In this document: positions 2,989 to 63,383 of the stretch, in pieces
How the letters are laid out: every line of letters starts with the position of its first letter
Numbering within the stretch: position 1 is the first letter of the stretch
NCBI GenBank assembly: GCA_035691845.1
Contig: DASSIN010000272.1
Location: 936 to 64,935 of the forward strand
Reading direction: 5' to 3'
DNA: 64,000 bases
DNA from: Candidatus Eiseniibacteriota bacterium
Lineage (GTDB): Bacteria > Eisenbacteria > RBG-16-71-46
Notes under the pieces: generated by a model
What the model saw: the letters and a program-made list of their open reading frames with translations, nothing else
Database searches by the model: none
What the model was told of the DNA's origin: nothing
Program-made: the position numbers and the translations under genes

Positions 2989-3076
2989 AGCGCCGCGCGC
3001 CCCAGGCGCGCGGGGATGGCGCGGCGCCGCACGCCGACGTTGCCCTCGGACTGCGGGCTCGTGTACTCCTCCTCGC

Positions 3077-4810: not shown

Positions 4811-4821
4811 GCCGCCGCGGG

Positions 4822-5793
4822 ATGACGCGCGACGCGGCGGGCGGCGGCGAGGCGTCCGCGCCGTGCGTGGTCGCGCTGGTCGGCGCCACCGCCACCGGCA
4901 AGACCGAGCTGGGCGAGGCGCTGGCCGGGTCGCTGGGCGCGGACATCGTGTGCGCCGATTCGCGCCAGGTGTTCCGCGAGCTGGACGTCGGCACCGGCAA
5001 GCCGGATGCCGCCACGCGCGCGCTCCGGCCGCACCATCTGTTCGACTGGCTGGGGCTGGGGGAGACGCCGAGCGCCGGCGACTGGGCGCGCGCGGCGTCC
5101 GCGTGCCTGGACGAGATCCACGCGCGCGACGGCCGCGCGCTGCTGGTAGGCGGCTCCGGGCTCTACCTGCGCGCGCTGATGCACGGCCTGCCGCGCCATC
5201 CGCCGCGCGATCCGGCCGTACGCGAGCGGCTGCGGCACGAGCTGGCCGAGCGCGGCGCGCCGGCGCTGCACGCGCGGCTCGAGGAGGTCGACCCCGCCAG
5301 CGCACGCCGGCTGGCGCCCGCCGACCGCCAGCGCATCGTGCGCGCGCTCGAGGTGTGGGAGACGAGCGGGCGGCCGTGGTCGGAGTGGCGCGCGGCGCCG
5401 GCCGAGGGCTTCCGCGCCACGTGGCGCGTGATCGAGCTCACCGCCGACACGGCGGAGCTGGACCGGCGGATCGCGGCGCGCGCGCGCCACATGTTCGCGC
5501 ACGGCTTGATCGAGGAGACGGCGGGACTCGAGGAAGCCGGGCTCGGTCCGGCGCTCGAGGCGTTGTCGGCGGTGGGCTACGACGAGGCGCTGGCCGTGCT
5601 CGCCGGCCGCATGCCGCGCGACGCCGCCATCGCGCGCACCATCCTGCGCACGCGTCAACTGGCGAAGCGGCAGCGCACGTGGTTCCGTCACCAGGTGGCG
5701 GCGACGCGGCTCGATTCCGCGCGGCCACCCGGCGCGCTGCTGGCCGCGGCGCGCGCGGCGGCGGGGCACACCCCGGTCACGCCACCGCGTTGA
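4822..5793 (+). CDS. miaA: tRNA dimethylallyltransferase MiaA
   Basis: The P-loop 'VALVGATATGKTELGEALA' is followed by 'DIVCADSRQVFRELDVGTGKP'. The mutL-miaA order is a conserved synteny. Confidence 0.85.
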   Translation: MTRDAAGGGEASAPCVVALVGATATGKTELGEALAGSLGADIVCADSRQVFRELDVGTGKPDAATRALRPHHLFDWLGLGETPSAGDWARAASACLDEIHARDGRALLVGGSGLYLRALMHGLPRHPPRDPAVRERLRHELAERGAPALHARLEEVDPASARRLAPADRQRIVRALEVWETSGRPWSEWRAAPAEGFRATWRVIELTADTAELDRRIAARARHMFAHGLIEETAGLEEAGLGPALEALSAVGYDEALAVLAGRMPRDAAIARTILRTRQLAKRQRTWFRHQVAATRLDSARPPGALLAAARAAAGHTPVTPPR

Positions 5794-11317: not shown

Positions 11318-12060
11318 AGATCCTCGTCACCAACGACGACGGCATTCACGCGCCGGCGCTGCTGCGGCTGCGCGAGGCGTTGAGTCCGCTCGGCGACGTG
11401 GTGATCGTGGCGCCCGACCGCGACCAGAGCGCCACCTCGCACTCGCTGACGCTGCATCGTCCGTTCCGCATCCAGCGTCACGACGACAACGTGTTCAGCG
11501 TGGACGGAACGCCCACCGATTGCGTGGTGACGGCGTGGTACGGTCTGCTGGACGGGACGCCCGATCTGGTGGTGTCCGGCATCAACCACGGGCCCAACAT
11601 GGGCGAGGACGTGTTCTACTCGGGCACGGTCGCGGCCGCCATCGAAGGCACGCTGCAGGGCGCGCCCTCCATCGCCGTATCGCTCGCCAGCCGCGCGCCG
11701 GCCGACTTCGTCGATCCCGCGCGCTGGGCGGCAGGGCTGGCGCGCGAGGTGCTGGATCATGGCCTGCCGCGGCGCCAGCTGCTGAACGTCAACATACCGA
11801 ACCGCCCTTGGAGCGAGCTCGGCGGAGTGCAGGTGACGCGGCTCGGCAGCCGCGTCTATCGCGACACGCTGGTGCGCAAGACCGACCCGCGCGGGCGCGA
11901 CTACTACTGGATCGGCGGCCAGGATCCGGTATGGGAATCGGTGGAGGGCACCGATTTCCACGCCGTCCACGCCGGCTGCATCTCGGTCACGCCGATGCGG
12001 CTCGATCTCACCGACGAGGACGCGCTCGTGGACATCGAACGATGGCGGCTTCGGATCTGA
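11314..12060 (+). CDS. surE: 5'/3'-nucleotidase SurE
   Basis: The N-terminus reads 'MKILVTNDDGIHAPALLRLREAL...VAPDRDQSATSHSLTLHRP'. The start overlaps the GT2 stop (ATGA). Confidence 0.9.
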   Translation: MKILVTNDDGIHAPALLRLREALSPLGDVVIVAPDRDQSATSHSLTLHRPFRIQRHDDNVFSVDGTPTDCVVTAWYGLLDGTPDLVVSGINHGPNMGEDVFYSGTVAAAIEGTLQGAPSIAVSLASRAPADFVDPARWAAGLAREVLDHGLPRRQLLNVNIPNRPWSELGGVQVTRLGSRVYRDTLVRKTDPRGRDYYWIGGQDPVWESVEGTDFHAVHAGCISVTPMRLDLTDEDALVDIERWRLRI

Positions 12061-12737
12061 ACCAGCCCCCCGAGGGGTTCCGCTTCGAGGCGGAGCGCGC
12101 GCGCATGGTGGACGACCTCGCGCGCCGCGGCATCCGCGATCCGCGCGTGCTCGATGGGATGCGGCGCATGCCGCGCCACCTGTTCGTCGACGAAACCCTC
12201 GAGCCCGAGGCCTACGGCGACACGCCGCTGCCGACGGCGGCGGGGCAGACCATCTCGCAGCCGTGGATGGTGGCGAGGATGCTCGAGCTGTCGGAGCTCG
12301 CCCCCTGGCATCGCGTGCTCGAGATCGGCACCGGCAGCGGCTACCAGACCGCGCTGCTGGCCGCGCTGGCGCGCGAGGTGTGGTCGGTGGAGCGCGTGCC
12401 CGAGCTGCTGGAACAGGCGCGCGCACGCATCGCCTACCTCGGCCTCGAGCACGTGCACCTGGCGCTCGGTGACGGCTCGCTCGGCTGGCCGGAGGCCGCC
12501 CCCTATGATAGGGTCCTCGTCGCCGCAGCGGCGCCCCGCGTCCCCGAAGCGTTGAAATCGCAGGTGGGGGAGCGGGGCCTCCTCGTGATACCCGTCGGCG
12601 GACCGAAGCTTCAGCACCTCGAGGTGTGGCGCCGGCAGCCCGACGGCACGTGGGGCTCCCGCCGGCACGGGGAATGCCGCTTCGTCCCGCTGCTCGGCCG
12701 TGAGGCCTGGCCCGAGCAACGGGAGCCTGCGGAATGA
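12042..12737 (+). CDS. pcm: Protein-L-isoaspartate O-methyltransferase
   Basis: Motifs 'GQTISQPWMVARMLE' and 'VLEIGTGSGYQTALLA' are present. The start overlaps the surE 3' end. surE-pcm is a classical synteny. Confidence 0.85.
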   Translation: MAASDLNQPPEGFRFEAERARMVDDLARRGIRDPRVLDGMRRMPRHLFVDETLEPEAYGDTPLPTAAGQTISQPWMVARMLELSELAPWHRVLEIGTGSGYQTALLAALAREVWSVERVPELLEQARARIAYLGLEHVHLALGDGSLGWPEAAPYDRVLVAAAAPRVPEALKSQVGERGLLVIPVGGPKLQHLEVWRRQPDGTWGSRRHGECRFVPLLGREAWPEQREPAE

Positions 12738-12745
12738 CGACACGT

Positions 12746-12822
<77 letters not shown>

Positions 12823-12879
12823 TTCTATTCTCCGGCGTCCCGCGCGCGTCGCGACGGAGGCGGCCGAGGCGTTGCCCGC

Positions 12880-13161
12880 ATGCCGCACGTCCACGTGGTG
12901 ATTCACGGACAGGTGCAGGGTGTGGGGTTCCGCGCGTTCGTCGCGCGTGAAGCGGCCGCGCTCGCGCTGGCGGGTGAGGTGCGCAACCGGGCGGACGGCA
13001 CCGTCGAGGTGCATGCGGAAGGGCCGCGTGCGGCGCTGGAAACGCTGGTCGGGCGCCTCGCCCAGGGCCCGCGCTTCGCGCGCGTGTCACATCAGGAGGT
13101 GACGTGGAGCGACGCGCCGCAAGGGCACGCGCGGCGGCGGCGGTTCGTGATCGCGCCGTGA
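12880..13161 (+). CDS. acyP: Acylphosphatase
   Basis: A 93-aa protein with the motif '[14 protein letters not shown]' and the later '[13 protein letters not shown]'. Confidence 0.8.
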
Positions 13162-34977: not shown

Positions 34978-35661
34978 CTAACGCGGCGCGCGCTCCGACG
35001 CCGGGCGCCGCCGCCGGGCGAGGGCGTGCCGCGCACCACCCGCGCCGGCCCTGGCCGCCGGACCCTGAAGTCCCGTCAGCACGCATTCGAACGCCTGATC
35101 CACGAAACCCCTCGTCACCGGCTCGAAGCGGATGAACTTGCGGTAGAACATCGGCCCGTAGAGCAGGTCGCCTGCCGCCAGCGGCGAGATGTCGCGGCGC
35201 AGCAGTCCGTCGTCCTGCGCGCGCTTGATCGCCGCCGCGGTCGCCTTGCGGCGCGGTCTGAACAATCGGTTGCGCAGCGCGGTGCGGATGTCGGGATCGT
35301 GCTCGGCCTCGCCCAGCAGCGCGATCAGCAACCGCCCGGACAACCCCTCGGCCGCGCGCCCCACGAGCTGCAGGGCGTGTCGCAGCTCCGCCAGCGGCTC
35401 GCCGGTGCCGGTCGGCGGCGCCGCCCGGGACGCGACCTCGACCAGCAGATCCACCACCAACGCGGCACGATTGGGCCACCAGCGATAGATCGTGGTCTTC
35501 GCCACGCCCGAGCGTTCCGCGACCGCCTCGATCGTCGCCGCCTCGTAGCCGCCCTTTTCGACCAGCGCCTGCACGGCCGCGAGGATCGCCCGCCGCGCCG
35601 GCTCGCTGCGTGGCCGCCCGCGCCCCTTCGTATCGGATGACGCCCCGGTCGCCGACTGCAT
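34978..35661 (-). CDS. TetR/AcrR-family transcriptional regulator
   Basis: The HTH 'ATIEAVAERSGVAKTTIYRWWPNRAALV' is present. Confidence 0.8.
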   Translation of the reverse strand: MQSATGASSDTKGRGRPRSEPARRAILAAVQALVEKGGYEAATIEAVAERSGVAKTTIYRWWPNRAALVVDLLVEVASRAAPPTGTGEPLAELRHALQLVGRAAEGLSGRLLIALLGEAEHDPDIRTALRNRLFRPRRKATAAAIKRAQDDGLLRRDISPLAAGDLLYGPMFYRKFIRFEPVTRGFVDQAFECVLTGLQGPAARAGAGGARHALARRRRPASERAPR

Positions 35662-35753
35662 GCCCGCAACTTACGCTACTTCTCGTGTCGAAACAAACGT
35701 CGCGGGTGGATCCGTAGAACTGCGTACGCCTTTCGGCGACGAACTTTCTGGAT

Positions 35754-35770
35754 CGCTACGCAACGTAGCG
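35754..35770. promoter_or_regulatory. Perfect 7-3-7 palindrome cgctacg-caa-cgtagcg in the TetR/cupredoxin divergent intergenic region (candidate operator)
   Basis: The inverted repeat was seen directly. It lies between the divergent genes at 35661 and 35855. Confidence 0.3.
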
Positions 35771-35854
35771 TATCCAAGGTGCCCATCGCTCTCGTCCCCG
35801 CCGGCCGCGCACCGGCCTCCGGGGTGCACGGCTCCACACCACGAGGAGGCGCTC

Positions 35855-36241
35855 ATGTTGGCAAGGCTTGGAACCCCGTCGCTCGCCGCGCTGCTGCTGG
35901 CGCTGGCGATGTCGTCGACGTCGTGCTCGTCCAAGAGCGGCGGCGGCGGCAACAACTATGTCACCAGCCCGGCGCCGCAGCTGGAGCTGAACTCCGGCGA
36001 CATCGCGCCCGGCGGCACTTACGTGCACCGCTTCGCGGCGGCCGGCACGTACGGATACCACTGCATCCATCACGCCCCGATGACCGGCAATGTCCAGGTC
36101 AGCGCCAGCGCGGCCGACACGCTCGTCAGCGTCAGCATCACCAGCTCCACCTCGCCGTTTCCGGCGGCGGCGGTGAAGCCGGGCGGAACGGTGGTGTGGA
36201 CCAACAATTCGGGAATGCTGCACACCGTCACCAGCAACTGA
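35855..36241 (+). CDS. Secreted cupredoxin-like (pseudoazurin/plastocyanin-like) protein
   Basis: An AGGAGG RBS and a signal peptide or lipoprotein-like N-terminus 'LAALLLALAMSSTSCSS' are present. The type-1 copper ligand pattern 'HCIHHAPMTGNV' (C-x2-H-x2-M) follows an upstream His in 'TYVHRF'. Confidence 0.5.
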   Translation: MLARLGTPSLAALLLALAMSSTSCSSKSGGGGNNYVTSPAPQLELNSGDIAPGGTYVHRFAAAGTYGYHCIHHAPMTGNVQVSASAADTLVSVSITSSTSPFPAAAVKPGGTVVWTNNSGMLHTVTSN

Positions 36242-36299
36242 TGTCCTGGCCGGCGCCACGCGGCGCCGGCCCTTCACCCCAGCCCTGGAGAACCTCGTC

Positions 36300-36818
36300 A
36301 TGACCCGATTCGCCGTCATCGTCGCGATCGCCGCCTCGTGCGTGACCTTCTCGACCGCCTTCGCTCAGGGTTCCGCCAATCACACGTTCGCATTCAACGC
36401 CCAGGACATCAGCGGTTTCCCCAGCGGCGCCGTGTCGCTCACCGGCGGCGGCACGTTCGACGCCGCCACCGGCTTCATTCACGCGGGCGGCAGTTTCAGC
36501 TGCACGCGCGACATCGACCAGGGGCCGCTCGCCGGCTGCAAGGCAGGCGAAGGCATCCGCTGGGACTCGGCCGAGATCGTGAGCTCGTTCGGCATCAAGT
36601 GCAGCGGCGCCCTCAGCGAGCCGGCGAAGCTGGCGGTGACCGGCAACACGGCGATCGTGCTGAAGGCCGACTTCTACCGCGCCGGCGACGGAACGCACGA
36701 GTCGTTCACGGCGAACATGGTCGTGTCGTCGGTGGATCTGGACCCCGCGCAGCCCGGCGTCCAGAACATCTGGATCCAGGGCGTGGGATGTGGCGAAGCC
36801 AACGTGACGTTTCAGTAG
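36300..36818 (+). CDS. Secreted hypothetical protein (172 aa)
   Basis: The signal peptide 'AVIVAIAASCVTFSTAFAQ' is present and the mature part is Gly/Ser/Thr-rich with 4 Cys. No homology clue. Confidence 0.45.
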   Translation: MTRFAVIVAIAASCVTFSTAFAQGSANHTFAFNAQDISGFPSGAVSLTGGGTFDAATGFIHAGGSFSCTRDIDQGPLAGCKAGEGIRWDSAEIVSSFGIKCSGALSEPAKLAVTGNTAIVLKADFYRAGDGTHESFTANMVVSSVDLDPAQPGVQNIWIQGVGCGEANVTFQ

Positions 36819-36850
36819 GCGAACCGCGGCCGGCAGGGAAGGGGATCGAC

Positions 36851-38608
36851 ATGCGTCACATGTGCTGGTTCGTTCCCGTGGCGGTCGTCGCGAGCGTGGT
36901 GCCGGGGTCGCTCCTGGCTCCACGCGTCGCCTCGGCCGCCTGGCCGCCGTTCGGACGCGCGATCGCGACGGCTGTCAACGACCAACTGGGACCGAAGATC
37001 GTCCCGGACGGTGCGGGCGGCGCGATCGTCGCCTGGCTGGACCGCCGCACGCCCGCGCTGAATCTCTACGCCGATCACGTGCTGGCGTCTGGCGATCTGG
37101 ATGCGGGCTGGCCCGTGAACGGTCGGGCGCTGCTCACCGACTCGCTGGCCGCGGCGATCTTTCCCGAGGGCCAGGAGTTTCCCGCCGTCGCGCCGGACGG
37201 CGCGGGCGGCGCGATCGTGAGCTGGCCCGATGCCCGCAGCGCCTCCACGGGGCTCGACGTCTACGCCCAGCACGTGCTGGCCTCGGGCATCGTGGATCCC
37301 GCATGGCCCGTCAATGGCGCGGCGCTGTGCGCGGTGGCGGGGGCGCAGAATTCCGTCGTCATGCTCGCCGACGGAGCGGGTGGCGCATTCGTCGCGTGGA
37401 TCGACGGCCGCAGCGACCCCACCGCGGACGGGCTCGACATCTACGCGCAGCACGTGCTGGCCTCGGGCGCGGTGGATCCCGCATGGGCCGCCGGCGGCAC
37501 GGCCGTGTGCGTGGCAAATGGCGCACAAATTGGTCCGGTGCTCGCTTCGGACGGCGCCGGCGGTCTGCTCGTGAGCTGGTACGACCTGCGCAGCAGCGTC
37601 ACGGGTGACGACATCTACGCCCAGCACGTGCTGGGTTCGGGGACGGTGGATCCTGCATGGCCCATGAACGGCCGCGCCCTGTGCACCGCCCCCGGCACGC
37701 AGGCCGCGCCCGACATCGTCCCCGACGGCGCCCACGGCGCCATCGTCGCATGGCACGACGCGCGCGACGGCGTCAATCACATCTACGCGCAGCGCGTGCT
37801 GGCCTCGGGCGCGATCGCCCCCGGGTGGCCGGCCAACGGCCTGCCGGTGTCGGTCACGGGCGTCGACGAGGTCATCGCCAAGCTCGTTCCGGACGTCGCG
37901 GGCGGCGCGATCGTAACGTGGGGCGACGCGAGCGCGGGACATCATGCGATGCGCGCGGCGCACGTGCTCGGAGCGGGCGCCGTGGATCCCGCGTGGCCGG
38001 CCGGCGGCGTGGCGTTGAGCGGCACGCCGTCGGAGCAGACCTCGCAGGACGTGGCCCCCGACGGAAGCGGCGGAGCGTTCGTCGTCTGGCAGGTGGGCCT
38101 GGACGTCGTGGCGCAGCACGTGCTCGCCTCGGGGGCGCTCGACTCCGCGTTCCCGGCCGACGGACGCCCGGTGTGCGACCTGCCGAGCCGGCAGCAGAAT
38201 CCGGCGATCACAGACGATGGCGCGGGCGGGGCGATCGTGACCTGGATGGATTTCCGCAACGGCGTGGATTCGGACATCTTCGGGCTGCAGGTGCTGGCCG
38301 CGGGCACCTCCGGCGTGGCCGGCCCGACGCCGCGCGGGATCACGCTGGTGGCGGCTCCGAACCCGGCGCACGGTCCGCTGGCGCTGCGGTTCGCGCTGCC
38401 GCGGGCGATGCCGGTGACGCTCGCCATCTACGACGCGGACGGGCGGCGCGTGCGCACCCTGGCGGACGGCATGCGGCCGGCGGGCACGGAGATCGTGGGC
38501 TGGGACGTGCGCGACCGGGGTGGACGCGCGGTTCCCCCCGGGCTCTACTTCGCCCGGCTCGCGGCGGACGGACACGTGCTCGTCCGCCGGATCGCGAGAA
38601 TGCCGTGA
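36851..38608 (+). CDS. Secreted repeat protein with eight repeats of about 50 aa and a C-terminal FlgD-Ig / T9SS-like sorting domain
   Basis: After a signal peptide there are eight repeats with consensus 'PDGAGGAIV.W.D.R......DIYAQHVLASG.VDPAWP.NG.AL'. The C-terminal domain reads 'PNPAHGPLALRFALPRAMPVTLAIYDADGRRVRTLADG...GLYFARLAADG'. Confidence 0.7.
   Translation: MRHMCWFVPVAVVASVVPGSLLAPRVASAAWPPFGRAIATAVNDQLGPKIVPDGAGGAIVAWLDRRTPALNLYADHVLASGDLDAGWPVNGRALLTDSLAAAIFPEGQEFPAVAPDGAGGAIVSWPDARSASTGLDVYAQHVLASGIVDPAWPVNGAALCAVAGAQNSVVMLADGAGGAFVAWIDGRSDPTADGLDIYAQHVLASGAVDPAWAAGGTAVCVANGAQIGPVLASDGAGGLLVSWYDLRSSVTGDDIYAQHVLGSGTVDPAWPMNGRALCTAPGTQAAPDIVPDGAHGAIVAWHDARDGVNHIYAQRVLASGAIAPGWPANGLPVSVTGVDEVIAKLVPDVAGGAIVTWGDASAGHHAMRAAHVLGAGAVDPAWPAGGVALSGTPSEQTSQDVAPDGSGGAFVVWQVGLDVVAQHVLASGALDSAFPADGRPVCDLPSRQQNPAITDDGAGGAIVTWMDFRNGVDSDIFGLQVLAAGTSGVAGPTPRGITLVAAPNPAHGPLALRFALPRAMPVTLAIYDADGRRVRTLADGMRPAGTEIVGWDVRDRGGRAVPPGLYFARLAADGHVLVRRIARMP
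36962..38321 (+). repeat. Intragenic tandem DNA repeats of about 150 bp, eight units, diverged
   Basis: Recurring strings such as 'ccggacggcgcgggcggcgcgatcgt...tgg' and 'tacgcccagcacgtgctggcctcgggc' appear at roughly 150-180 bp intervals. Confidence 0.6.
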
Positions 38609-38628
38609 CGCCGGTGCCGGCGCCGGGA

Positions 38629-39672
38629 CTAACCCGCGTGCGCCGGGACGCGGGCGGGCCGCCGGTCCGCGCGCGCGCGGCGGGCGCGGCGCCACGCCGC
38701 CGGCGACTCGCCGACCTCGCGCTTGAACGCGCGCGAGAACGCGGCCTCGTTCTCGTAGCCGACCTCGAGCGCGATCTCGATCACCTTGGCATCCGTGTCG
38801 CGCAGCCACCCCGCGGCGAGCTGCATCCGCCAACGCGCCAGGTACTGAATCGGCGGCTGTCCGATGAAGTGAACGAAGCGCTCGTGCAGCGTGGAGCGCG
38901 ACAGCGCGGCCTGCTCGGCCAGACGCTCGAGCGTCCACGGCTCGCCCGGCCGCTCGTGGATGAGCGCGAGCGCGCGCCCCGCCGCCGGATCGCGCATGCC
39001 GGACAGCCATCCGGTGTGCTCGGCGGGCAGCGCGTCGGCGTAGCGCCGCAGCACCTCCACGAACAGCATCTCGCTCATGCGCTCCAGCACGGCTTCGCCG
39101 CCTGGCCGCTTGCGGTTCGACTCCTCCACGGCCGAGCCGAGGAAGTGGGCGATCCACGGGCTGCCTTGGGCGACGCCGGCCATGCGCACCGCGCGTGGCA
39201 GCGACGCCAGCAGCGGATTGAACGGCCGCGCGTCGCAGCCCAGGAACCCGCACACCAGCGTGGTGCGCTGGTCGCCGCCGCCATCCAGCAGCGCGGTGGT
39301 CTCGCCGCTGGCGGTCACGCTCAACGAGAACGGCAGTTGCGGCGGCTTGGGGGTGAAGTAGATGCGCGGATCCACCACCTCCGCGCGCAGGCCGGGCGCG
39401 CTCGACATCACGTGATGATCGCCGTGCGGGAACAGCACGACGTCCCCCTCGTGCAGGCGGATCGGCTCCTGGCCGACGATGGCGGCCCAGCACGAGCCGC
39501 GCGCGACGCCGTGGAACTCCATCATGTGCTCGACGCCCGGAAGGATCGCGGGAATGAGCTCGCGCTGGTTCGGCGTCTCGGCCACCCACGGGTCGGCGCC
39601 CTCGATGTAGAAGAACACCGCGCCGCGCAGTCGCACCGCGCGCAGCAGATCGGAAAGGGTGTCGCCGCTCAT
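38629..39672 (-). CDS. AraC-family transcriptional regulator with an N-terminal cupin-type sensor domain
   Basis: The AraC HTH 'TLERLAEQAALSRSTLHERFVHFIGQPPIQYLARWRMQLAAGWL...AFKREVGESPAAWRR' is present. Confidence 0.8.
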   Translation of the reverse strand: MSGDTLSDLLRAVRLRGAVFFYIEGADPWVAETPNQRELIPAILPGVEHMMEFHGVARGSCWAAIVGQEPIRLHEGDVVLFPHGDHHVMSSAPGLRAEVVDPRIYFTPKPPQLPFSLSVTASGETTALLDGGGDQRTTLVCGFLGCDARPFNPLLASLPRAVRMAGVAQGSPWIAHFLGSAVEESNRKRPGGEAVLERMSEMLFVEVLRRYADALPAEHTGWLSGMRDPAAGRALALIHERPGEPWTLERLAEQAALSRSTLHERFVHFIGQPPIQYLARWRMQLAAGWLRDTDAKVIEIALEVGYENEAAFSRAFKREVGESPAAWRRARRARADRRPARVPAHAG

Positions 39673-39845
39673 CGTGTCTCCAGCGGGGGCCAGGCCGGGA
39701 CGGCGGGGGATCCGTCATCGGGGGATCCGGCGTCGGACGATCGGCACAGTGTTTCCGACGGGGGGCAGGGCGTCAACGCCGGCGTTTGCGGCAGGGTGCG
39801 CATCTGCAGATGAGCACACGCCGTCAACCCCCGAGGAGGCAGCCC

Positions 39846-40670
39846 ATGAGCACCTTGAACGTTCAGTCCGCGCCCGACGACGCCATCAAGTCACGCCAGC
39901 AGGCCACCTGGAGCTCTGCCGACTACGGTCGCATCGGGATTCGGCTGCAGATCGTGGGCGAGTCGCTGTGCGAAGCGGTCGATCTCCGCGCTACCGACGC
40001 CGTGATCGACGTCGCCGCCGGCAATGGCAACGCCTCGCTGGCCGCGGCCCGGCGGTTCGCCGACGTGACGTCCACCGACTACGTGGCCGAGTTGCTCGAC
40101 CAGGGGCTGCGGCGCGCGGAGGCCGAGGGGCTCGCGATCGTGACCCGCGTGGCCGACGCCGAGCGGCTGCCGTTCGGCGACGGCGCGTTCGACGTGGCGC
40201 TGTCCACGTTCGGGGTGATGTTCGCCCCGAACCAGCCCCGCGCCGCCTCCGAGCTGCTGCGCGTCGTCAAGCCGGGTGGCCGCATCGGGCTCGCCAACTG
40301 GACGCCCGACGGATTCGTGGGCGAGCTGTTCCGCGTGATCGGGCGGTTCGTGCCGCCGCCGCCCGGGATCGCGCCGCCGGTCGCGTGGGGCATGGAGACG
40401 CGGCTGGTCGAGCTGTTCGGCCCGCACGCCAGCGACATCCGCACCGAACGCAAGGCGTACGTGTTCCGGTACGTGTCGGCCGCGCACTGGATCGACGAAT
40501 TCCGCCGCTTCTACGGCCCGGTGCACAAGGCGTTCGAGGCGCTCGACGCCGCCGGCCAGCAGCAGTTGCAGCGGGCGCTGCAGGAGCTGCTCGACAAGCA
40601 CAATCGGGGCGGCGCCGACGCGCTGCTCGTGCCTTCCGAATACCTGGAGATCGTGATCCGTCGCGCGTGA
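39846..40670 (+). CDS. Class I SAM-dependent methyltransferase (Methyltransf_11-like)
   Basis: A GAGGAGG RBS precedes it. The SAM motif 'VIDVAAGNGNASLAAARR' and motif II 'VKPGGRIGLANW' are present. Confidence 0.75.
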   Translation: MSTLNVQSAPDDAIKSRQQATWSSADYGRIGIRLQIVGESLCEAVDLRATDAVIDVAAGNGNASLAAARRFADVTSTDYVAELLDQGLRRAEAEGLAIVTRVADAERLPFGDGAFDVALSTFGVMFAPNQPRAASELLRVVKPGGRIGLANWTPDGFVGELFRVIGRFVPPPPGIAPPVAWGMETRLVELFGPHASDIRTERKAYVFRYVSAAHWIDEFRRFYGPVHKAFEALDAAGQQQLQRALQELLDKHNRGGADALLVPSEYLEIVIRRA

Positions 40671-40842
40671 CGCGGGGATCGATGAAGCAGGCGCTGGCAC
40701 AGGCGGCGCCCCAGCCGGCGATGCCGGCGCTATATAGTGACGCTCGTCTTGGGGCTCTCCACGACTGGAACCCGGACGACGAGCGGTTCCACCCGGTCCG
40801 ACGCATCCATCGGTCGCACGGCGACCTCACGAGGAGGACACC

Positions 40843-42228
40843 ATGGCCTCTCTGCAGCAACTGAAGATCGACGAGCTGGGTGCCGGATTCTCGGGCCAGC
40901 TGCTGGCGCCCGGCAGCGACGGATACGATGTCGCCCGCCGCATCTGGAACGCGATGGTGGACAAACGCCCGGCGCTGATCGCGCGCTGCGTCACGCGCGA
41001 GGACGTGGTGCGGGCGGTGGACTTCGCGCGCCGTTACGGCCTGGCGCTCGCGGTGCGCGGCGGCGGCCACAACATCGCGGGCAGCGCGATGCTGGACGGC
41101 GGCCTGGTGATCGACCTGTCGCCGATGCGAGCGGTGACGGTGGACGTGCCCGGGCGGCGGGTGACGATCGAAGGCGGCGCCACGCTCGCCGACCTGGACG
41201 CGGCCACCCAGCCCCACGGACTCGCCACGCCGGCCGGCATCAACTCCACGACCGGCATCGCCGGATTGACGCTGGGCGGCGGGTTCGGCTGGCTGAGCCG
41301 GAAGTACGGGATGACGGTCGACAACCTGATCTCGGCCGAAGTGGTCACCGCCGCGGGCGAGGTGGTGCGCGCCAGCGCGACCGAGCACCCGGACCTGTTC
41401 TGGGCGCTGTGCGGCGGCAGCGGGAACTTCGGCGTGGTGACGCGCTTCGAGTTCCAGCTGCACGCGGTCGGCCCGGACGTGTTGAGCGGTCTGATCGTGT
41501 ACCCGATCGCGCAGGCGAAGGCGGTGCTGCAGCGGTATCGCGAGTTCGTGGCTGCCGCGCCGGACGAGCTCACCGTGTGGGGCGTGATGCGACTCGCGCC
41601 GCCGCTGCCGTTCCTGCCGCCGGACGTGCACGGCCGGCCGGTGCTGGTGCTGGCGCTGATGTACGCGGGCGATCCGCAGCGGGGCGAACAGCTGATCGCG
41701 CCGCTGACGCAGTTCGGCACGCCGGCCGGCGCTCACGTCGGGGTGCAGCCGTACGCGGCGTGGCAGCAGGCGTTCGATCCGCTGCTCACGCCCGGCGCAC
41801 GCAACTACTGGAAGTCGCACAACATGGTCGCGCTCGAGGACGGGTTGGTGGATGCCGCGATCGCCGCGGTCGGCACGCTGCCGTCGCCGCACGGCGAGAT
41901 CTTCATCGCATCGCTGGGCGGCGCGACGATGCGGCCCGCGCCGGAGGCAACCGCCTACGCCCATCGCGGCACGCGCTACGTGCTGAACGTGCACGCCCGC
42001 TGGGAGGATGCGGCCGACGACGCGAGCAACGTGCGCTGGGCACGCGACGTGTTCGAGGCGATGGCGCCGTTCGCGAGCGCCGGCGTGTACGTCAACTTCC
42101 TGACCGCGGACGAGGCGGATCGCGTGCGTGTGGCGTACGGGCCGAACTACGAGCGTCTGGCGCAGGTGAAGCGTCGCTACGATCCGGACAACCTGTTCCG
42201 CTCGAACCAGAACATCACGCCGGCGTGA
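40843..42228 (+). CDS. FAD-linked oxidase (FAD_binding_4 + BBE-like C-terminal domain)
   Basis: Motifs 'LAVRGGGHNIAGSAMLDGGLVIDLS' and 'AGLTLGGGFGWLSRKYG' are present and the C-terminus reads 'YDPDNLFRSNQNI'. Confidence 0.8.
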   Translation: MASLQQLKIDELGAGFSGQLLAPGSDGYDVARRIWNAMVDKRPALIARCVTREDVVRAVDFARRYGLALAVRGGGHNIAGSAMLDGGLVIDLSPMRAVTVDVPGRRVTIEGGATLADLDAATQPHGLATPAGINSTTGIAGLTLGGGFGWLSRKYGMTVDNLISAEVVTAAGEVVRASATEHPDLFWALCGGSGNFGVVTRFEFQLHAVGPDVLSGLIVYPIAQAKAVLQRYREFVAAAPDELTVWGVMRLAPPLPFLPPDVHGRPVLVLALMYAGDPQRGEQLIAPLTQFGTPAGAHVGVQPYAAWQQAFDPLLTPGARNYWKSHNMVALEDGLVDAAIAAVGTLPSPHGEIFIASLGGATMRPAPEATAYAHRGTRYVLNVHARWEDAADDASNVRWARDVFEAMAPFASAGVYVNFLTADEADRVRVAYGPNYERLAQVKRRYDPDNLFRSNQNITPA

Positions 42229-42383
42229 ACCAGGGGCCGGCGTGCCAGCGGTGTCCGTCCGGGCGGCCGGGAAGCCTGCTCGACCGGTCGCGGTCCGCGG
42301 AGGGCTACGCGGGCTGTGTGAGGGCACGGCGAACCCCGGCCGTTCGGCGGGCGTGATTCCCATATGATGTCCAGGGAGGTCGC

Positions 42384-43643
42384 ATGTTGCAGCGGGTGAT
42401 GGCGTGGATGGCGGTCGCGGCGGTGTCGCTCGCACTCGGGGCCCCGGCGCGCGCGCAGGAATGGAGGCGCGTCACGGCGCTGCCCGCGAGCGACGTGTTC
42501 GCGTTGCGGGCGATGGGCGACACGCTCGTCGCCGGCATGGACACCACCGTGTTCGTGAGCACGGATGGCGGCGGCACATGGCGCCCGCCCGTTCGGGTCG
42601 CGGTCGATGTGGCGGTGGTGGACGCGGTCCTGCTCCGGAACGGCCGGTCGTATGCGGGCACGTTGGGCCAGGGCGTGTTCGTCAGCGACGACCTGGGCGC
42701 GAGCTGGCAGCCGTTCAACGACGGCCTGACCGGCGGCCTGTTCGACTCGCAGCTCGACGTGGCCGATCTCGAAGCGAGGGGCGACAGCCTGTACGCGGCC
42801 ACCCAGGGTGCCGGCGTGTACGTGCGCAGGCTGACCCCGGCCGACACGTGGCATCCGTACGGTGACGCGTTCGAGCCCAACCAGGCGCCGAACGTCAGCG
42901 ACCTGGCGTCCGACGGCGCGCGGCTGGTGGCGTGCGCGGGCGGGAACGGCATGATGTTCACGCGCGATCCCGCCGACCCCGACTGGACGGTGAGCTTTCT
43001 CGACGACGTCGGCATCCACGCGGGGCTCGCCCCCGAAGCCGCGCTGTGGACGGGCTCGAGCTGGGTGGTGGGCACGAATCTCGGCGTGTTCGCGAGCCCC
43101 ACGGGCCTGCAGCCGTGGACGCGGACGCAGACGCCGCTCACCCAGGTCCACGGCAGCGCGTTCGCGCTGCGCGGTGGAACGCTGATCGGCGCGTTCGACC
43201 TGCAGGATCTCGCGGTGATCCAGGAGAGCGTGGACCAGGGCGCGACCTGGTCCAACGTGGAGACGCTGTTGCAGACGTTCGTCTACCAGCTCGTGGTGCA
43301 GGGCGGGAACCTGTTCGCCGCGCGCGCGGACGGGCTGTGGGTGCGCCGGGCCACGACGTCCGTGCCGGAGGCCCGTGGGCCGGGCGCGCTGCGAGTCGCG
43401 CTCGTCGGGCCCAACCCCGTTCGTGACGTGGCGCAGTTCCGGTTCGAGCTGCCGCGCGCGGGCGAGGCGGCGCTCGAGCTGTTCGACGTGGCGGGACGCG
43501 CCGCGGCGCGCGTATCGGGGTTCTGGAGCGCGGGCGTGCACGAGACGAGCGTGGATGCCGCCCAGCTCGCGCCCGGCGTCTACGGCGCGCGGCTGACCTC
43601 GGGCGGCGCCAGCGCCACGACGCGGGTGGTTCGGGTACTCTAG
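42384..43643 (+). CDS. Secreted BNR/Asp-box repeat protein (Ycf48/sialidase-like beta-propeller) with a FlgD-Ig / T9SS-like C-terminal domain
   Basis: The signal peptide 'MAWMAVAAVSLALGAPARA' is present. The Asp-box motifs are 'STDGGGTWRP', 'SDDLGASWQP' and 'DQGATWSNV'. The C-terminal domain reads 'VGPNPVRDVAQFRFELPRAGEAALELFDVAGR...GVYGARL'. Confidence 0.7.
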   Translation: MLQRVMAWMAVAAVSLALGAPARAQEWRRVTALPASDVFALRAMGDTLVAGMDTTVFVSTDGGGTWRPPVRVAVDVAVVDAVLLRNGRSYAGTLGQGVFVSDDLGASWQPFNDGLTGGLFDSQLDVADLEARGDSLYAATQGAGVYVRRLTPADTWHPYGDAFEPNQAPNVSDLASDGARLVACAGGNGMMFTRDPADPDWTVSFLDDVGIHAGLAPEAALWTGSSWVVGTNLGVFASPTGLQPWTRTQTPLTQVHGSAFALRGGTLIGAFDLQDLAVIQESVDQGATWSNVETLLQTFVYQLVVQGGNLFAARADGLWVRRATTSVPEARGPGALRVALVGPNPVRDVAQFRFELPRAGEAALELFDVAGRAAARVSGFWSAGVHETSVDAAQLAPGVYGARLTSGGASATTRVVRVL

Positions 43644-43714
43644 GGCGACCCGCAGCGGTTCGACCGGTCCACATGCCCGACGGACCGCCCGGGGGACCGC
43701 CCCGAGGGGACCCG

Positions 43715-44596
43715 ATGGCCGTGCCCACCCAGACCATCGCCTCGCCGCCTCAGTCGCCGGCGTCCGGCGCGTCCAACGGACTGCTCCGGTTCTTCGTCCT
43801 CACGTTCGCGTTCACGTGGACCTGCTTTCTGCTCGCGGTCGCGTGGACGCGCGGGCGCGCGCCCGGCGCGAGCCTGTCGGCGGGGGTGCAGGCGATCGTG
43901 CTGCTCGGCACGTTCGCGCCGGCGATCGTGGCGCTCGCGCTCACCGCGCGCGCATCGCATGCCCCTGGCGTGCGCGCGCTGCTCGCGCGGCTCGTGCGCT
44001 GGGAGGTGGGCGGCCGCTGGTACGCGTTCGCGCTCGGCTACACGGTTGCGGTCAAGCTCGGCGGCGCCGTGCTGACGCACATCGTGACCGGCGCCTGGCC
44101 GCGGTTCGCCTGGGCCGCCGCGCCACTACTGCTGGCGGCCACGCTGTTCTCGACGCTGGTCGGCGGACAGCTGGGGGAGGAGCTCGGCTGGCGCGGGTTC
44201 GCGTTGCCACGGCTCGCCCGGCGCATCGGACTTTCGGGCGCGAGCCTGGTGCTGGGTGCGATCTGGGCGGCCTGGCACCTGCCGCTGTTCTACGTGCATG
44301 GGGCCGACACGTTCGGGCAGTCGTTCCCGTTCTACCTGCTGCAGGTGAGCGGACTGTCGGTGGCGGTGGCGTGGCTGTGGTGGCGCACCCGGGGCAGCCT
44401 GCTGCTCACGATGCTGATGCACGCCGCGATCAACAACCTGAGCCCGATCGTTCCTGCGCTGGCGCGCGCGCCGGCCGATCCGTTCACGCCCGCGGCACCG
44501 CTGCAGTCGTGGGTGACGCTCGCCGTGCTGTGGGCCACCGCGGCCGTGCTGCTGTGGCAGATGCGCAACGCCGATCCAGCCGCGTGGGAGCGCTGA
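43715..44596 (+). CDS. CPBP-family intramembrane metalloprotease (CAAX protease-like)
   Basis: Multiple TM helices, the motif 'GEELGWRGFALPRL' and the second motif 'LLTMLMHAAINN' are present. Confidence 0.75.
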   Translation: MAVPTQTIASPPQSPASGASNGLLRFFVLTFAFTWTCFLLAVAWTRGRAPGASLSAGVQAIVLLGTFAPAIVALALTARASHAPGVRALLARLVRWEVGGRWYAFALGYTVAVKLGGAVLTHIVTGAWPRFAWAAAPLLLAATLFSTLVGGQLGEELGWRGFALPRLARRIGLSGASLVLGAIWAAWHLPLFYVHGADTFGQSFPFYLLQVSGLSVAVAWLWWRTRGSLLLTMLMHAAINNLSPIVPALARAPADPFTPAAPLQSWVTLAVLWATAAVLLWQMRNADPAAWER

Positions 44597-59627: not shown

Positions 59628-60596
59628 TCATTTTGCGGCGACCACCGGCGGGCCGACGTCGCGCCGCACCGGCGGCACCGTCATCAGATAGCGGTAGATC
59701 GCGCGCAGGTCGTCCTCGCGCATGCGGCGGAATCCCTGCCACGGCATCGGCGAGCCCGGCAGCAGCCGGCCGGCGCGGAACCGCTGCACGAACTGGTCTT
59801 CGGTCAGCTTCCCGAGCCGCCCGGTCGCCGGGTCGCGCGTGATGTTGGGCGGCGCCCAGATCATGCCGGGAGTGTCGGAGCTGGTGAAGCGCGTGGCGCC
59901 GCCGAACCGCGGGCCGTCGAGCGCGCCAGTGCGCTCGTCGCGCTCGGTGTGGCACGCCCAGCACAGGCCCACCGACTCCACCAGACAGTGCCCGTTCTCG
60001 ACCGTGGCGCCGCGCGGACTCGCCTGGAGTGGCGGCGCGCTCGGACCGACGGGGTTCGCGAGGAGGGTGGCCTTCACCACCTTGCCGAGCAGGGTGTACT
60101 CGTGCGCGGGCACGGGATGGTGAACGGGCGGCTGCGAGCGCAGGTAGGAGACGACGGCCTCAAGATCGTCGTCCGACAGGCCCTGCATCTCCATGAATGG
60201 CAGCAGCGCGCGCCCGTCGGGGCCGACGCCGAAGCGCAGCGCGCGTGCGACCGCGCCATCCGCGTAGCGTCCGATGCCGGTCTGCGAGTCCGGCGTGATG
60301 TTGCGCGCCCGGAACTTGCCGGGCGGGATGTCGAACGTGAATCCGCCGCTCAACGGCACGTCGGCGCCGTCCATCCACGCCGCGCGCTGCGCCGGGTCGC
60401 CGTGGCACTGAGCGCAATTGGCGACGTTGCGCACCAGGTAGCGCCCGCGCGCGACCACGGCCGTGTCGGCGCTGGCGGCCACGGCAGGGTATGGCACGTC
60501 GAACGTGAGGTGCTGCCGCGAGGACACGAACACGGCGCCGGCGGCGACCGCCAGCACGATCACTCCAGGCAACGCGAACAGGATTCTGCGAAGCAT
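59628..60596 (-). CDS. Membrane-anchored di-heme c-type cytochrome
   Basis: The 322-aa C-terminal part of ORF 59628..61121 has an N-terminal TM helix 'ILFALPGVIVLAVAAGAVFV' and two CxxCH motifs, 'CAQCH' and 'CWACH'. A GGAGG RBS precedes it. Confidence 0.75.
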   Translation of the reverse strand: MLRRILFALPGVIVLAVAAGAVFVSSRQHLTFDVPYPAVAASADTAVVARGRYLVRNVANCAQCHGDPAQRAAWMDGADVPLSGGFTFDIPPGKFRARNITPDSQTGIGRYADGAVARALRFGVGPDGRALLPFMEMQGLSDDDLEAVVSYLRSQPPVHHPVPAHEYTLLGKVVKATLLANPVGPSAPPLQASPRGATVENGHCLVESVGLCWACHTERDERTGALDGPRFGGATRFTSSDTPGMIWAPPNITRDPATGRLGKLTEDQFVQRFRAGRLLPGSPMPWQGFRRMREDDLRAIYRYLMTVPPVRRDVGPPVVAAK

Positions 60597-60725
60597 GCGG
60601 GCCTCCGGGGGCGGCGGTGGCGCGCCCGCGTTCCCCGGACCGTCGCAGGCGTCTCCGTGACACCCATCACGCGAACGGCGGCCGCGGAGTGCGTGTCCAG
60701 CGCGCAGTTGGGGTACTTTCGTAAC

Positions 60726-63383
60726 ATGCAGCTCCCTTCGGGCGCCAGGCTGGGCCCCTACCAGATCCTCCGTCCGCTCGGCGCCGGCGGCATGGGGGAG
60801 GTGTATCGCGCCCTGGACCCCCGCCTCGGGCGCGAGGTCGCGATCAAGGTGCTGCCCCAGCATCTGTCCGCCCAGCCCGAGGTGCGCGCGCGCTTCGAAC
60901 GCGAGGCGAAGACCGTGTCGAGCCTCAACCATCCGAACATCTGCACGCTGTTCGACGTGGGCCGCGAAGGCGATACCGATTTCCTGGTGATGGAGCTGGT
61001 GGACGGCGAGACGCTGGCCGAGCGGCTCGGGCGCGGCGCGCTGCCGGTGGGCGAGACGCTCCGGATCGGCGCACAGATCGCCGATGCCCTGGACCGTGCT
61101 CATCGCGCGGGGGTGATCCACCGCGACCTGAAGCCCGGCAACATCATGCTCACGAAGTCAGGCGCCAAGCTGATGGACTTCGGGCTCGCGCGCGCCGACG
61201 GGCTCGCCGGCCCGGCGCCGGGCTCGGGCGCGTCGCCCGCCGCGCTCACCCAATCGCCCACCGTCGCGCAACCTCTGACGGCCGAAGGCACCATCGTCGG
61301 CACCTTCCAGTACATGGCGCCGGAGCAGCTCGAGGGCCGCGAGGCCGACGCGCGAACCGACATCTGGGCGCTGGGCTGCGTGCTGTACGAGATGGCGACC
61401 GGCCGCCGCGCGTTCGAGGGCCGCAGCCATGCCTCGCTGATCGCGGCGATCCTCGAGCGCGAGCCCGCGCCCGCCTCGCTGCTGTCGCCCGCGAGCCCGC
61501 CCGCGCTCGACCGGCTGATCGGACGCTGCCTCGCCAAGGACCCTGACGACCGCTGGCAGACCGCACGCGACCTGATGCACGAGCTGCGCGCGATCCCGGA
61601 CGCGACCGGCGGCGCGGCCGGCGCGCCGGTGGTGCGCGCCCGCGCCAGCCGCGGCCCAACGCTGCCGTGGGCGATCGCCGGCGCGGCCCTGCTCGCGGCG
61701 CTCGGCCTCGGTGCGGCGTGGGTCACGCGCACGTCCGGGCCGCGCGAGCCGGTGCAGCTCTCGCTGCTGCCGGCCGAGCGCTCGGTGTTCACCCCGTACA
61801 GCTCGCTGATCGCGATCTCGCCCGACGGCCGCAGCATCGCCTACTGTGCGGCGGATCCGGGCAGTCACCAGCGCCTCGCGCTCTACGTCCAGTCGCTCGA
61901 CTCGCGCACGCCGGTCCATCTGATGGACGGCGAGACGCCGCTGGAGCCGTTCTGGTCTCCCAACGGGCGCGAGCTCGGCGTGCTCAGCATGGGCGGCCGG
62001 CAGCTGGTGACGATCCCGGTGAGCGGCGGAAGCCCCACCGTGGTGTGCCCGAGTCCGGGAGGCCGGGGCGGCACGTGGAATCGAAACGGCGAGATCGTGT
62101 TCGCGCCCAGCGCATCGGGCCCGCTGTATCGGGTTTCGGCGAGTGGAGGACAGCCGCAACAGGCGACGTGGCCAGACACCGCCCGCCACGAGATCGGCCA
62201 TCGCTTCCCATGCTTCCTTCCCGACGGCCGGCACTTCCTGTACGTCTCGCTGCCGCGCGGACCGGACGGGTTCCCGATCTACGTGGCGGCGCTCGACTCG
62301 CACGCGGCGCGGCAGATCACGGGCGCGGATTCGGCTCCGACCTACGCCGAGCCCGGCTATTTGCTGTTCCGGCGCGCGGGGAAGGTCATGGCGCAGCGCT
62401 TCGACGCTCGCGCCCTGAAGCTCGCGGGAGCGCCGGTGGCGATCGCGGACGCGCCGCCGATCAGCGACCTCGACGCGGAGCCGGTCGCGGCAGCGTCGCG
62501 CAACGGACGGCTGGTGATGGTGGACGCGCGCGCCCCCGACACGCAGCTCGAGTGGCTGGATCCGAGCGGCGCGCCGCATGGCGTGCTCGCGCTGCCGGCG
62601 GCGCCGTGGGGGCCTCCCAGGCTGTCGCCCGACGGCCGCTTCGCGATCGTGGCGAAGGAGGGCGACCTCTGGAGCGTGGACCTCCAGCGCTCGGTCGCCA
62701 CGCGCATCACCTCGAGCGGCCTCGTGCGCGGCGACGCGGTGTGGTCGCCGGACGGCCGCCGCATCGCGTTCCCGGAGGATCATGGCCGCGAGGAGATCAT
62801 GATGATGAACGCGGACGGCTCGGGCAAGGCCGAGACCGTTGCGACCACCGACGATCTGTTCAAGCTGCCGGAGGACTGGTCGAGCGCGGGCCTCGTATTC
62901 CAGGTCATCGCGCGCCAGACCCTGCGCGACCAGTGGTTGCTGCCCACGGACGGCGGCAAGCCGGTTCCACTGCTGCAGACGCCATTCCCCGAATACGGCG
63001 GGCGGGTATCGCCAGACGGGCGCTGGATCGCGTACCTGTCCACCGAGAGCGGGCACGACGACGTCTACGTGCAGTCGTTCCCGACCCTGGGCCACAAGCT
63101 GCGCGTGTCCACCGAGGGCGCGCAGCGGGTGTGGTGGATGCCGGGCAGCGACGGACTGTGGTACGCGCGCTCAGACGACAACGCGGTGATGCGGGTGACG
63201 CTCACGCGCCGCGGCGATGCGCTCGTGGTGGGGGAGCCGCACGCCCAGCGACCCTCTCCGCCGGGGCTGATCGGCGGCGACATCGCGCGTGACGGCCGGC
63301 GCGTGCTCGCCACCATCGCTCGCGCATCGGGGTCGAGCAGCGCGCGCGTGACGCTGGACTGGACGGCCCTGCTCCGGCCTTGA
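60726..63383 (+). CDS. Serine/threonine protein kinase fused to a TM segment and a TolB-like (PD40) beta-propeller
   Basis: The kinase subdomains 'LGAGGMGEVYRALD...VAIKVL', 'HRDLKPGNIML', 'DFGLAR' and 'GTFQYMAPEQ' are present. The C-terminal half has repeated 'SPDGR...A' PD40-like blades. The ATG at 60726 was placed by arithmetic within ORF 59949..63383. Confidence 0.8.
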   Translation: MQLPSGARLGPYQILRPLGAGGMGEVYRALDPRLGREVAIKVLPQHLSAQPEVRARFEREAKTVSSLNHPNICTLFDVGREGDTDFLVMELVDGETLAERLGRGALPVGETLRIGAQIADALDRAHRAGVIHRDLKPGNIMLTKSGAKLMDFGLARADGLAGPAPGSGASPAALTQSPTVAQPLTAEGTIVGTFQYMAPEQLEGREADARTDIWALGCVLYEMATGRRAFEGRSHASLIAAILEREPAPASLLSPASPPALDRLIGRCLAKDPDDRWQTARDLMHELRAIPDATGGAAGAPVVRARASRGPTLPWAIAGAALLAALGLGAAWVTRTSGPREPVQLSLLPAERSVFTPYSSLIAISPDGRSIAYCAADPGSHQRLALYVQSLDSRTPVHLMDGETPLEPFWSPNGRELGVLSMGGRQLVTIPVSGGSPTVVCPSPGGRGGTWNRNGEIVFAPSASGPLYRVSASGGQPQQATWPDTARHEIGHRFPCFLPDGRHFLYVSLPRGPDGFPIYVAALDSHAARQITGADSAPTYAEPGYLLFRRAGKVMAQRFDARALKLAGAPVAIADAPPISDLDAEPVAAASRNGRLVMVDARAPDTQLEWLDPSGAPHGVLALPAAPWGPPRLSPDGRFAIVAKEGDLWSVDLQRSVATRITSSGLVRGDAVWSPDGRRIAFPEDHGREEIMMMNADGSGKAETVATTDDLFKLPEDWSSAGLVFQVIARQTLRDQWLLPTDGGKPVPLLQTPFPEYGGRVSPDGRWIAYLSTESGHDDVYVQSFPTLGHKLRVSTEGAQRVWWMPGSDGLWYARSDDNAVMRVTLTRRGDALVVGEPHAQRPSPPGLIGGDIARDGRRVLATIARASGSSSARVTLDWTALLRP

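Follow-up and report, generated by a model that had tools for sequence, protein, structure and literature searches.

A predicted eight-bladed beta-propeller on a candidate T9SS cargo protein from Candidatus Eiseniibacteriota

A 64,000-nucleotide stretch of DNA from a Candidatus Eiseniibacteriota bacterium (contig DASSIN010000272.1 of assembly GCA_035691845.1, positions 936 to 64,935; hereafter the window) carries a gene for a protein with eight tandem repeats between a signal-peptide-like N-terminus and a C-terminal immunoglobulin (Ig)-like domain. The repeat region, residues 31–489, most likely folds as an eight-bladed beta-propeller, judging from structure prediction; neither Pfam nor NCBIfam has a model made for the repeat, and no relative of it has been solved. 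On a balance tipped only slightly in its favor, we read the window protein as a non-catalytic binding propeller that is exported through a type IX secretion system (T9SS) and displayed on the cell surface; the export, the surface attachment, the binding role and the binding face are all things we infer.

Repeat units and predicted fold

An earlier note on this DNA, made without database searches, had described a secreted protein of eight tandem repeats. Alignment and repeat profiles bear out the count. The repeats are anchored on D53, D116, D174, D234, D292, D348, D404 and D456, and the register W-P-x-N-G ... S-G-x-V-D-P-x gives eight complete units that span residues 31–489. When each unit was scored with a profile built from the others, it reached 47–80 bits (E 1e-13 to 1e-23), against at most 15 bits for the best of 2000 shuffled copies. 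The units share 38–62% pairwise identity. They are longer than the note had them: 52–65 residues (mean 57) rather than about 50, and 156–195 nucleotides (60–84% identical to a reference copy) rather than about 150. Its statement that the aromatic and glycine positions are invariant also went too far. Strict invariance is limited to G5, D23, G27, V30, W32, V49, L50 and G53 of the unit; phenylalanine replaces the first tryptophan in unit 8, and the tyrosine of DIYAQ varies among units. Tandem Repeats Finder reported no long-period DNA repeat in the gene because the units are too diverged for it, whereas the repeat search and alignment did reveal them. A register in which unit 8 is truncated and completed by an N-terminal "velcro" strand was dropped, since the shifted register completes all eight units.

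The features of the gene, all on the forward strand, are as follows.

36851–38608, +: whole gene, 585 codons plus stop, with a stop-free translation
36835–36845, +: purine-rich stretch resembling a ribosome-binding site, AGGGAAGGGGA, ending 5 nucleotides before the ATG (sequence reading)
36851–36937, +: putative Sec-type signal peptide, residues 1–29 (MRH, hydrophobic core, PRVASA), with cleavage predicted before A30
36941–37108, +: unit (blade) 1, residues 31–86, from alignment; 67 bits with the unit left out of the profile, as for all units below; predicted strands at 36–39, 45–52, 58–64 and 71–77
37109–37303, +: unit 2, residues 87–151; 76.5 bits; 7-residue insertion in the first loop
37304–37483, +: unit 3, residues 152–211, from alignment; 72.8 bits
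37484–37657, +: unit 4, residues 212–269, from alignment; 72.1 bits
37658–37825, +: unit 5, residues 270–325, from alignment; 80.1 bits
37826–37993, +: unit 6, residues 326–381; 47.2 bits; most diverged of the eight
37994–38149, +: unit 7, residues 382–433; 53.6 bits; third loop shortened
38150–38317, +: unit 8, residues 434–489, from alignment; 55.6 bits
38318–38356, +: low-confidence linker, residues 490–502 (predicted local distance difference test score, pLDDT, below 50 at residues 486–495)
38357–38605, +: C-terminal Ig-like beta-sandwich, residues 503–585, ending in PPGLYFARLAADGHVLVRRIARMP; homologue of FlgD_ig and of the T9SS type A sorting domain

The content of guanine plus cytosine (GC) at the three codon positions of the gene is 0.76/0.57/0.89 in a window of about 72% GC, the pattern expected of a real gene in such DNA, and the long open reading frames (ORFs) overlapping it in the other frames are artefacts common in high-GC DNA. 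Its closest orthologue, P0001, is of equal length and 91% identical; the exact window protein was absent from the contig collection searched.

AlphaFold2 modeled the full protein from a 64-sequence alignment with a pLDDT of 89.1 and a predicted template-modeling score (pTM) of 0.77, and the propeller alone (residues 30–490, 88-sequence alignment) with a pLDDT of 94.6 and a pTM of 0.93. Both models contain 32 beta-strands in eight groups of four. The propeller-only model adds a short helix within the insertion of unit 2, and the full-length model a low-confidence helix at residues 7–21. We then considered the best 50 Foldseek matches of each model in the PDB, all at a probability of 1.00. Only beta-propellers are among the matches listed, for the full model and the propeller alone, at 8–15% identity, and none of them is close. 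For the propeller alone, the alkylating enzyme CylK (7fh6; query-normalized TM-score, TMq, 0.57) and the lectin CV39L (6gxs; TMq 0.55, target-normalized score, TMt, 0.68) come first, followed by GH145 and PL42 enzymes (about 0.5), sialidases and DPP8. The pTM of the propeller-only model and its propeller-only matches are what a single closed toroidal domain would be expected to give. Where the earlier note had hesitated between a propeller and a beta-helix, the eight groups of four strands, the Foldseek matches and the unit counts of relatives (mostly 8, 16 or 24) point to the propeller.

The predicted domain resembles CylK, CV39L, GH145 (5mvh, 5mul) and PL42 (7esn) in its propeller fold and four-stranded blades, and differs from them in that TMq is at most 0.57 and identity 11–15%; we also take those structures to be seven-bladed, against eight blades here. 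That CV39L is a lectin is in line with a binding role for the window propeller. From strand and loop lengths we think that each blade is contiguous, with the short G-x-A-V-C strand innermost and D-I-Y-A-Q-H-V outermost.

Two details of the repeats stand apart from the fold assignment. A 224-nucleotide direct repeat (37188–37411 and 37542–37765, 71% identical) has a spacing of 354 nucleotides, the length of two units, a hint that two blades were duplicated together. Unit column 9, in the short first strand, is a cysteine in the family consensus (G-x-A-L-C-T-A) and is kept as such in four of the eight window blades (C160, C220, C278 and C442); if the first strand lines the central channel, these cysteines would ring it.

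Named relatives, family size and blade history

No Pfam family matched the repeat, whether we used the whole protein, the eight single units or 64 orthologues. The earlier note had allowed for a variant of NHL, YVTN or Kelch with a known function; none of these, nor WD40, PQQ or BNR, is among the reported Pfam and NCBIfam matches of the protein, its single units or the orthologues, and the sole related signal is PD40, at E 0.02 in 4 of the 64 orthologues. The only curated model that detects the repeat is TIGR04275 (beta_prop_Msarc, "beta-propeller repeat protein"). It is matched by all 64 orthologues (E at most 1, best 8e-25) and by the window protein at 21.8 bits (E 1.2e-4), which does not reach its cut-off of 85; of ten further orthologues with individual scores displayed, none exceeds 67 bits. 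Within the unit, it is the Q..P.I..DG.GG.IV.W.D part that aligns to the model. The model has 40 positions, whereas the window unit, of about 57 residues, carries an extra conserved DIYAQHVLASG.VDP.WP segment. TIGR04275 presumably takes its name from Methanosarcina, whose surface proteins it may include; to our knowledge, no function is attached to it. Thus the note's view of the repeat as unrecognized stood as far as Pfam goes, and gave way in that all orthologues match TIGR04275, of which the repeat appears to be a sub-threshold relative. The one defined family found is neither matched at its cut-off nor, as far as we know, of known function.

Two other NCBIfam models were matched by orthologues, with neither among the reported matches of the window protein. 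The delta-60 model TIGR02608 is matched by 7 of the 64 (best 4.4e-9, at most 36 bits against a cut-off of 76.5), and the PDIAV-motif lipoprotein model NF053835 by 41 (best 4.2e-8, at most 33 bits against 90). We rejected an identity as a PDIAV lipoprotein, given scores below the cut-off and no cysteine after the signal-peptide cleavage site: the window protein lacks a lipobox, A-S-A being followed by alanine with no cysteine at +1. The delta-60 repeat, whose Pfam counterpart we take to be DUF5122 (PF17164), presumably has a period of 57–61 residues, similar to that of the window unit, and presumably the same order of elements (a strand, a D-G-x-hydrophobic strand and a G-x-x-D-x-x-F/W-G loop). 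The 25 Pfam families that the 64 orthologues match most frequently do not include DUF5122.

Searches of PDB sequences with the protein, a family profile and a profile of 89 units returned the tail only (FlgD and PorU) and nothing for the repeat below E 0.03; the 89-unit profile found nothing below E 0.6. A literature search gave nothing relevant on T9SS in Eisenbacteria, TIGR04275, delta-60, PDIAV or CV39L. On these sequence comparisons we regard the repeat as a distinct, unmodeled branch, distantly related to a named and uncharacterized propeller repeat.

The family is large. A word-seeded search gave 7,544 significant homologues among 8,000 candidates scored, and an eight-unit profile run against 1.84 billion cluster representatives matched 20,094 clusters at 50% identity with E at most 1e-3, and 6,379 with E at most 1e-30. 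Species-representative genomes hold at least 555 matching loci; of the best 80 of these, 78 are labeled metagenome-assembled genomes (MAGs) and two uncultured bins, and there are often several copies per MAG. The best matches come from Candidatus Eisenbacteria (52–54% identity), and others from Ignavibacteria, Bacteroidota, Latescibacteria, Krumholzibacteriota, Fibrobacter and further taxa. Judged by these labels, the family is mainly one of Fibrobacteres-Bacteroidetes-Chlorobi (FCB) lineages, mostly uncultured. The earlier note had likened the C-terminus to a sorting domain of Gemmatimonadota and FCB bacteria; the nearest named relatives are Candidatus Eisenbacteria and not Gemmatimonadota, so that by these matches the source organism is most likely an Eisenbacteria-like FCB bacterium. 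Other MAG labels are Udaeobacter, Saccharimonadaceae, Anaerolineae, Actinomycetota, Acidobacteriota, Vicinamibacterales, Gammaproteobacteria, Deferrimicrobium and an archaeon.

Unit counts cluster at multiples of eight, which supports closed eight-bladed rings: among 264 relatives, 165 have 8 units, 53 have 16 and two have 24. Many counts of 14–15 reflect a gap where a diverged unit was missed. Very large relatives, P0121 (4506 residues), P0123 (4286), P0139 (5506) and P0129 (2485), have 22–34 units depending on the threshold used for counting, and so may hold at least three propellers per chain.

The blades of these proteins also record how the family may have grown. In orthologues that are at least about 57% identical to the window protein, units pair position by position, with a diagonal identity of 0.60–0.92 against 0.48 off the diagonal. 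In homologues at or below about 50% identity, diagonal and off-diagonal unit identities are equal, and in several of these the blades are more alike within a protein (0.60–0.77) than between proteins. Across the family, the units of one protein share an identity of 0.35 to 0.77; the window protein, with a mean of 0.47, is moderately repetitive. Concerted evolution or repeated re-amplification from single blades could account for this pattern, and both are known for propellers (PMC9218822). The same amplify-and-differentiate pattern is seen in the highly repetitive propellers surveyed by Pereira and Lupas (2022, PMC9218822), who mapped propellers to ECOD families; a word search of that paper found neither SBBP nor DUF5122. 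Some members, among P0165, P0237, P0051, P0025, P0002 and others, have mean blade identities of 0.70–0.77, with up to 0.96 for single pairs.

Proposed export, surface display and function

The protein is probably secreted, as the earlier note had held: its N-terminus has the shape of a signal peptide, with A-S-A before A30 by sequence reading, and the orthologue consensus there is PRPASAxWP. The note had also assigned a C-terminal domain of T9SS/FlgD-Ig type, and this too found support. The tail passes the Pfam cut-off for FlgD_ig (PF13860; 33.1 bits against 27, residues 509–572). The T9SS type A model TIGR04183 is matched by all 64 orthologues, and seven of ten scanned individually pass its cut-off, at 23.3–32.8 bits, while the window tail itself stays below the T9SS cut-offs. 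Because orthologous tails pass TIGR04183, we take the window tail to be homologous to the T9SS type A domain. The family profile matches the C-terminal region of a PorU chain in the PDB (E 3.4e-5), and we take the G-x-Y-F-x-R-L motif and basic ending of the window protein to be typical of type A T9SS tails. T9SS has been reported for the FCB superphylum (PMC11205867).

Like T9SS type A cargo, the protein has a signal peptide, a passenger and a C-terminal beta-sandwich of about 80 residues, and its relatives lie mainly in FCB MAGs; it differs in its sub-threshold tail and in a passenger drawn from a repeat family without a studied member. An identity as the flagellar hook-capping protein FlgD was rejected, as only the Ig-like part matches and full-length FlgD models give 26 bits against a cut-off of 230; PDB chains of FlgD align to window residues 477–573 only. 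"FlgD" names on homologues, which are named in databases only after the tail domain, are therefore misannotations. Joint Genome Institute (JGI) names such as "flagellar hook capping protein FlgD" and "head-tail adaptor" on P0012, P0018, P0037, P0067, P0072 and P0098 are misleading; their source appears to be the Ig-like tail or a weak Phage_HCP match.

In the mechanism we propose, a Sec signal peptide would take the protein to the periplasm, where residues 31–489 would close into an eight-bladed propeller with four antiparallel strands per repeat. The T9SS would recognize the C-terminal Ig-like domain (503–585), carry the protein across the outer membrane, and then link it to the cell surface or release it. 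At the surface the propeller would serve as a non-catalytic binding module of the adhesin or lectin type.

We favor a non-catalytic binding module because of the skeleton-only conservation, the variable loops, the acidity, the partner modules and the unconserved gene context. Conserved positions among the 64 orthologues are those of the repeat skeleton, so no catalytic constellation is apparent; the only blade-specific ones are A213, V113, V349, G478 and V489, and no blade-specific polar site is conserved in this set. The DG-GG loop and the SG-VDP-WP-NG loop are nearly unchanged across all eight blades, whereas the D-R...D loop and the loop that follows strand 1 differ from blade to blade and from paralogue to paralogue. 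Loops of a four-strand meander alternate between the two faces; by this topology the two conserved loops would lie on one face and the variable loops opposite, and the variable face would be the likelier site of ligand specificity. The propeller is acidic, with 45 aspartates and glutamates against 16 lysines and arginines. Fourteen longer relatives carry added PKD, TIG, Big_12, HYDIN/ASH-type Ig, Laminin_G_3, LTD, CARDB, MopE, DUF5719 or TIR domains, and no catalytic domain above the Pfam cut-off was found in them.

Several observations weigh against a T9SS-exported binding propeller. The window tail scores 12.1 bits with Por_Secre_tail (PF18962, Pfam cut-off 27) and 17.7 bits with TIGR04183 (NCBIfam cut-off 23), and no T9SS machinery gene is among the 18 window ORFs scanned with Pfam. 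Blade number, ring closure and the choice of exposed residues are predictions from secondary structure, pTM and unit counts, and eight is not absolute, given the 14 or 10 contiguous units of a few relatives. No conserved operon or binding-site geometry points to a particular binding function, and enzymes are numerous among the Foldseek matches, with sialidases, GH145, GH43, polysaccharide lyases and CylK.

These last matches raise the alternative of an exported enzyme that acts on glycans or other polymers, for example a sialidase-like hydrolase or a polysaccharide lyase. PL24, PL25 and PL42 lyases are among the many catalytic best matches, and hydrolases are common among T9SS cargo (PMC11205867). 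However, the matches are at the level of fold only, with 8–15% identity and a TMq of at most 0.57 for the propeller alone, and no BNR, glycoside hydrolase or polysaccharide lyase family is among the reported Pfam and NCBIfam matches of the protein and the 64 orthologues. The conserved aspartate, arginine and histidine positions are found again in all blades, as in a structural motif, and the longer relatives tested bring no catalytic partner above the cut-off. We consider an enzyme rather unlikely.

The abundance of the family, its multiple copies per genome, the giant relatives with at least 24 units (such as P0121, of 4506 residues, and P0139, of 5506) and the strong acidity of the propeller, along with the surface proteins that its distant relative TIGR04275 may include, would also suit a building block of a coat resembling a surface layer (S-layer), without a specific ligand, whose eightfold-conserved face serves self-assembly or envelope attachment. 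Here the gene context is not conserved and oligomerization finds no support, and a uniform lattice agrees less well than diversified binding with loops that vary and with many diverging paralogues. We hold such a coat protein to be unlikely.

The sub-threshold tail bears on a third alternative, in which the tail is a mere Ig-like fold of the FlgD_ig kind that carries no T9SS signal, and the protein is periplasmic or exported otherwise. It would explain why the window tail passes FlgD_ig and neither curated T9SS model, and some matches lie in MAGs with the non-FCB labels listed above, from phyla not known for T9SS. Yet orthologous tails do pass TIGR04183, the domain sits at the extreme C-terminus with the closing motif described above, the family profile matches the C-terminal region of PorU, and the non-FCB labels sit on MAG contigs and may be binning errors. 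We regard this as quite unlikely.

We give hardly any credence to a T9SS machinery component like PorZ, which combines beta-propellers with a C-terminal domain. PorZ (5m11) is among the Foldseek matches of the full model, and NF052228 (T9SS_PorZ) is weakly matched by 13 of the 64 orthologues. The one such match displayed, in P0073, covers only the tail (697–753 of 757 residues; 22.7 bits against a cut-off of 260); the window propeller belongs to a multi-copy family with thousands of divergent members, whereas PorZ is a machinery component; and no T9SS genes adjoin the propeller gene in the four neighborhoods examined.

Read as a surface-displayed binding propeller, the window protein is of a familiar kind, a propeller passenger on a T9SS tail within an already abundant family, and no unusual mechanism is indicated for this gene. 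T9SS-exported surface proteins shape particle attachment and feeding in Bacteroidota and their uncultured relatives, and the propeller repeat family ranks with the larger groups still without a name among candidate T9SS cargo. With a family model and one structure, names would be given to thousands of proteins that are at present called "hypothetical" or "FlgD-like", and blade identities from 35% to 77% with unit counts of mostly 8, 16 and 24 make the family a convenient case for studies of blade rebuilding. A bolder view, improbable at present, is that of a large unnamed eight-bladed lineage in which uncultured FCB bacteria rebuild propellers from single blades into a diversifying, T9SS-displayed receptor repertoire, with one face constant and eightfold symmetric and the other variable.

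Gene neighborhood

The gene order TetR, cupredoxin, 172-residue protein, propeller, BNR protein is kept in locus L001, which is 90% identical, and partly in L002. It was not kept across the 83 loci searched, nor in one further locus, and we dropped a function based on an operon because gene order is not conserved beyond close relatives. Upstream of the propeller gene lie a small cupredoxin (35855–36241, +; PF00127, 27.1 bits) and a gene for a 172-residue protein with a signal-peptide-like start and no family (36300–36818, +), which ends 32 nucleotides before the propeller gene, so that these three may be co-transcribed; their order is found only in L001. A promoter and terminator scan of 35500–38900 found neither a sigma-70-like promoter nor an intrinsic terminator.

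The window is collinear with L001 (90–93% DNA identity) except for two inserts present only in the window, at 38628–42357 and 43658–44527. The first, of 3.7 kb, encodes an AraC/Cupin_6 regulator (38629–39672, −), an S-adenosylmethionine (SAM) methyltransferase (39786–40670) and a BBE-type FAD oxidase (40843–42228), and splits the propeller gene from the BNR gene, which adjoin in L001. The second, of 0.9 kb, holds most of the gene for a CAAX/Rce1-like protease (43673–44596). The BNR gene (42384–43643, +) encodes a 419-residue protein with BNR/Asp-box and Sortilin-like matches and a Por_Secre_tail score of 19.5 bits, whose C-terminal domain is 33% identical over 109 residues to the propeller tail; it is likely a second T9SS cargo.

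Further away, a gene at 59949–63383 (+) encodes a 1144-residue Ser/Thr protein kinase fused to PD40 propeller repeats, and L002 has a similar kinase, with Tricorn/PD40 domains (2632–5337), in the vicinity of its orthologous propeller gene. The AraC and cupredoxin genes of the window recur near the family in another phylum: in L052, from a Krumholzibacteriota MAG, a 72% identical AraC regulator stands beside a 57% identical cupredoxin (11362–13044), about 4–5 kb from a gene of the propeller family.

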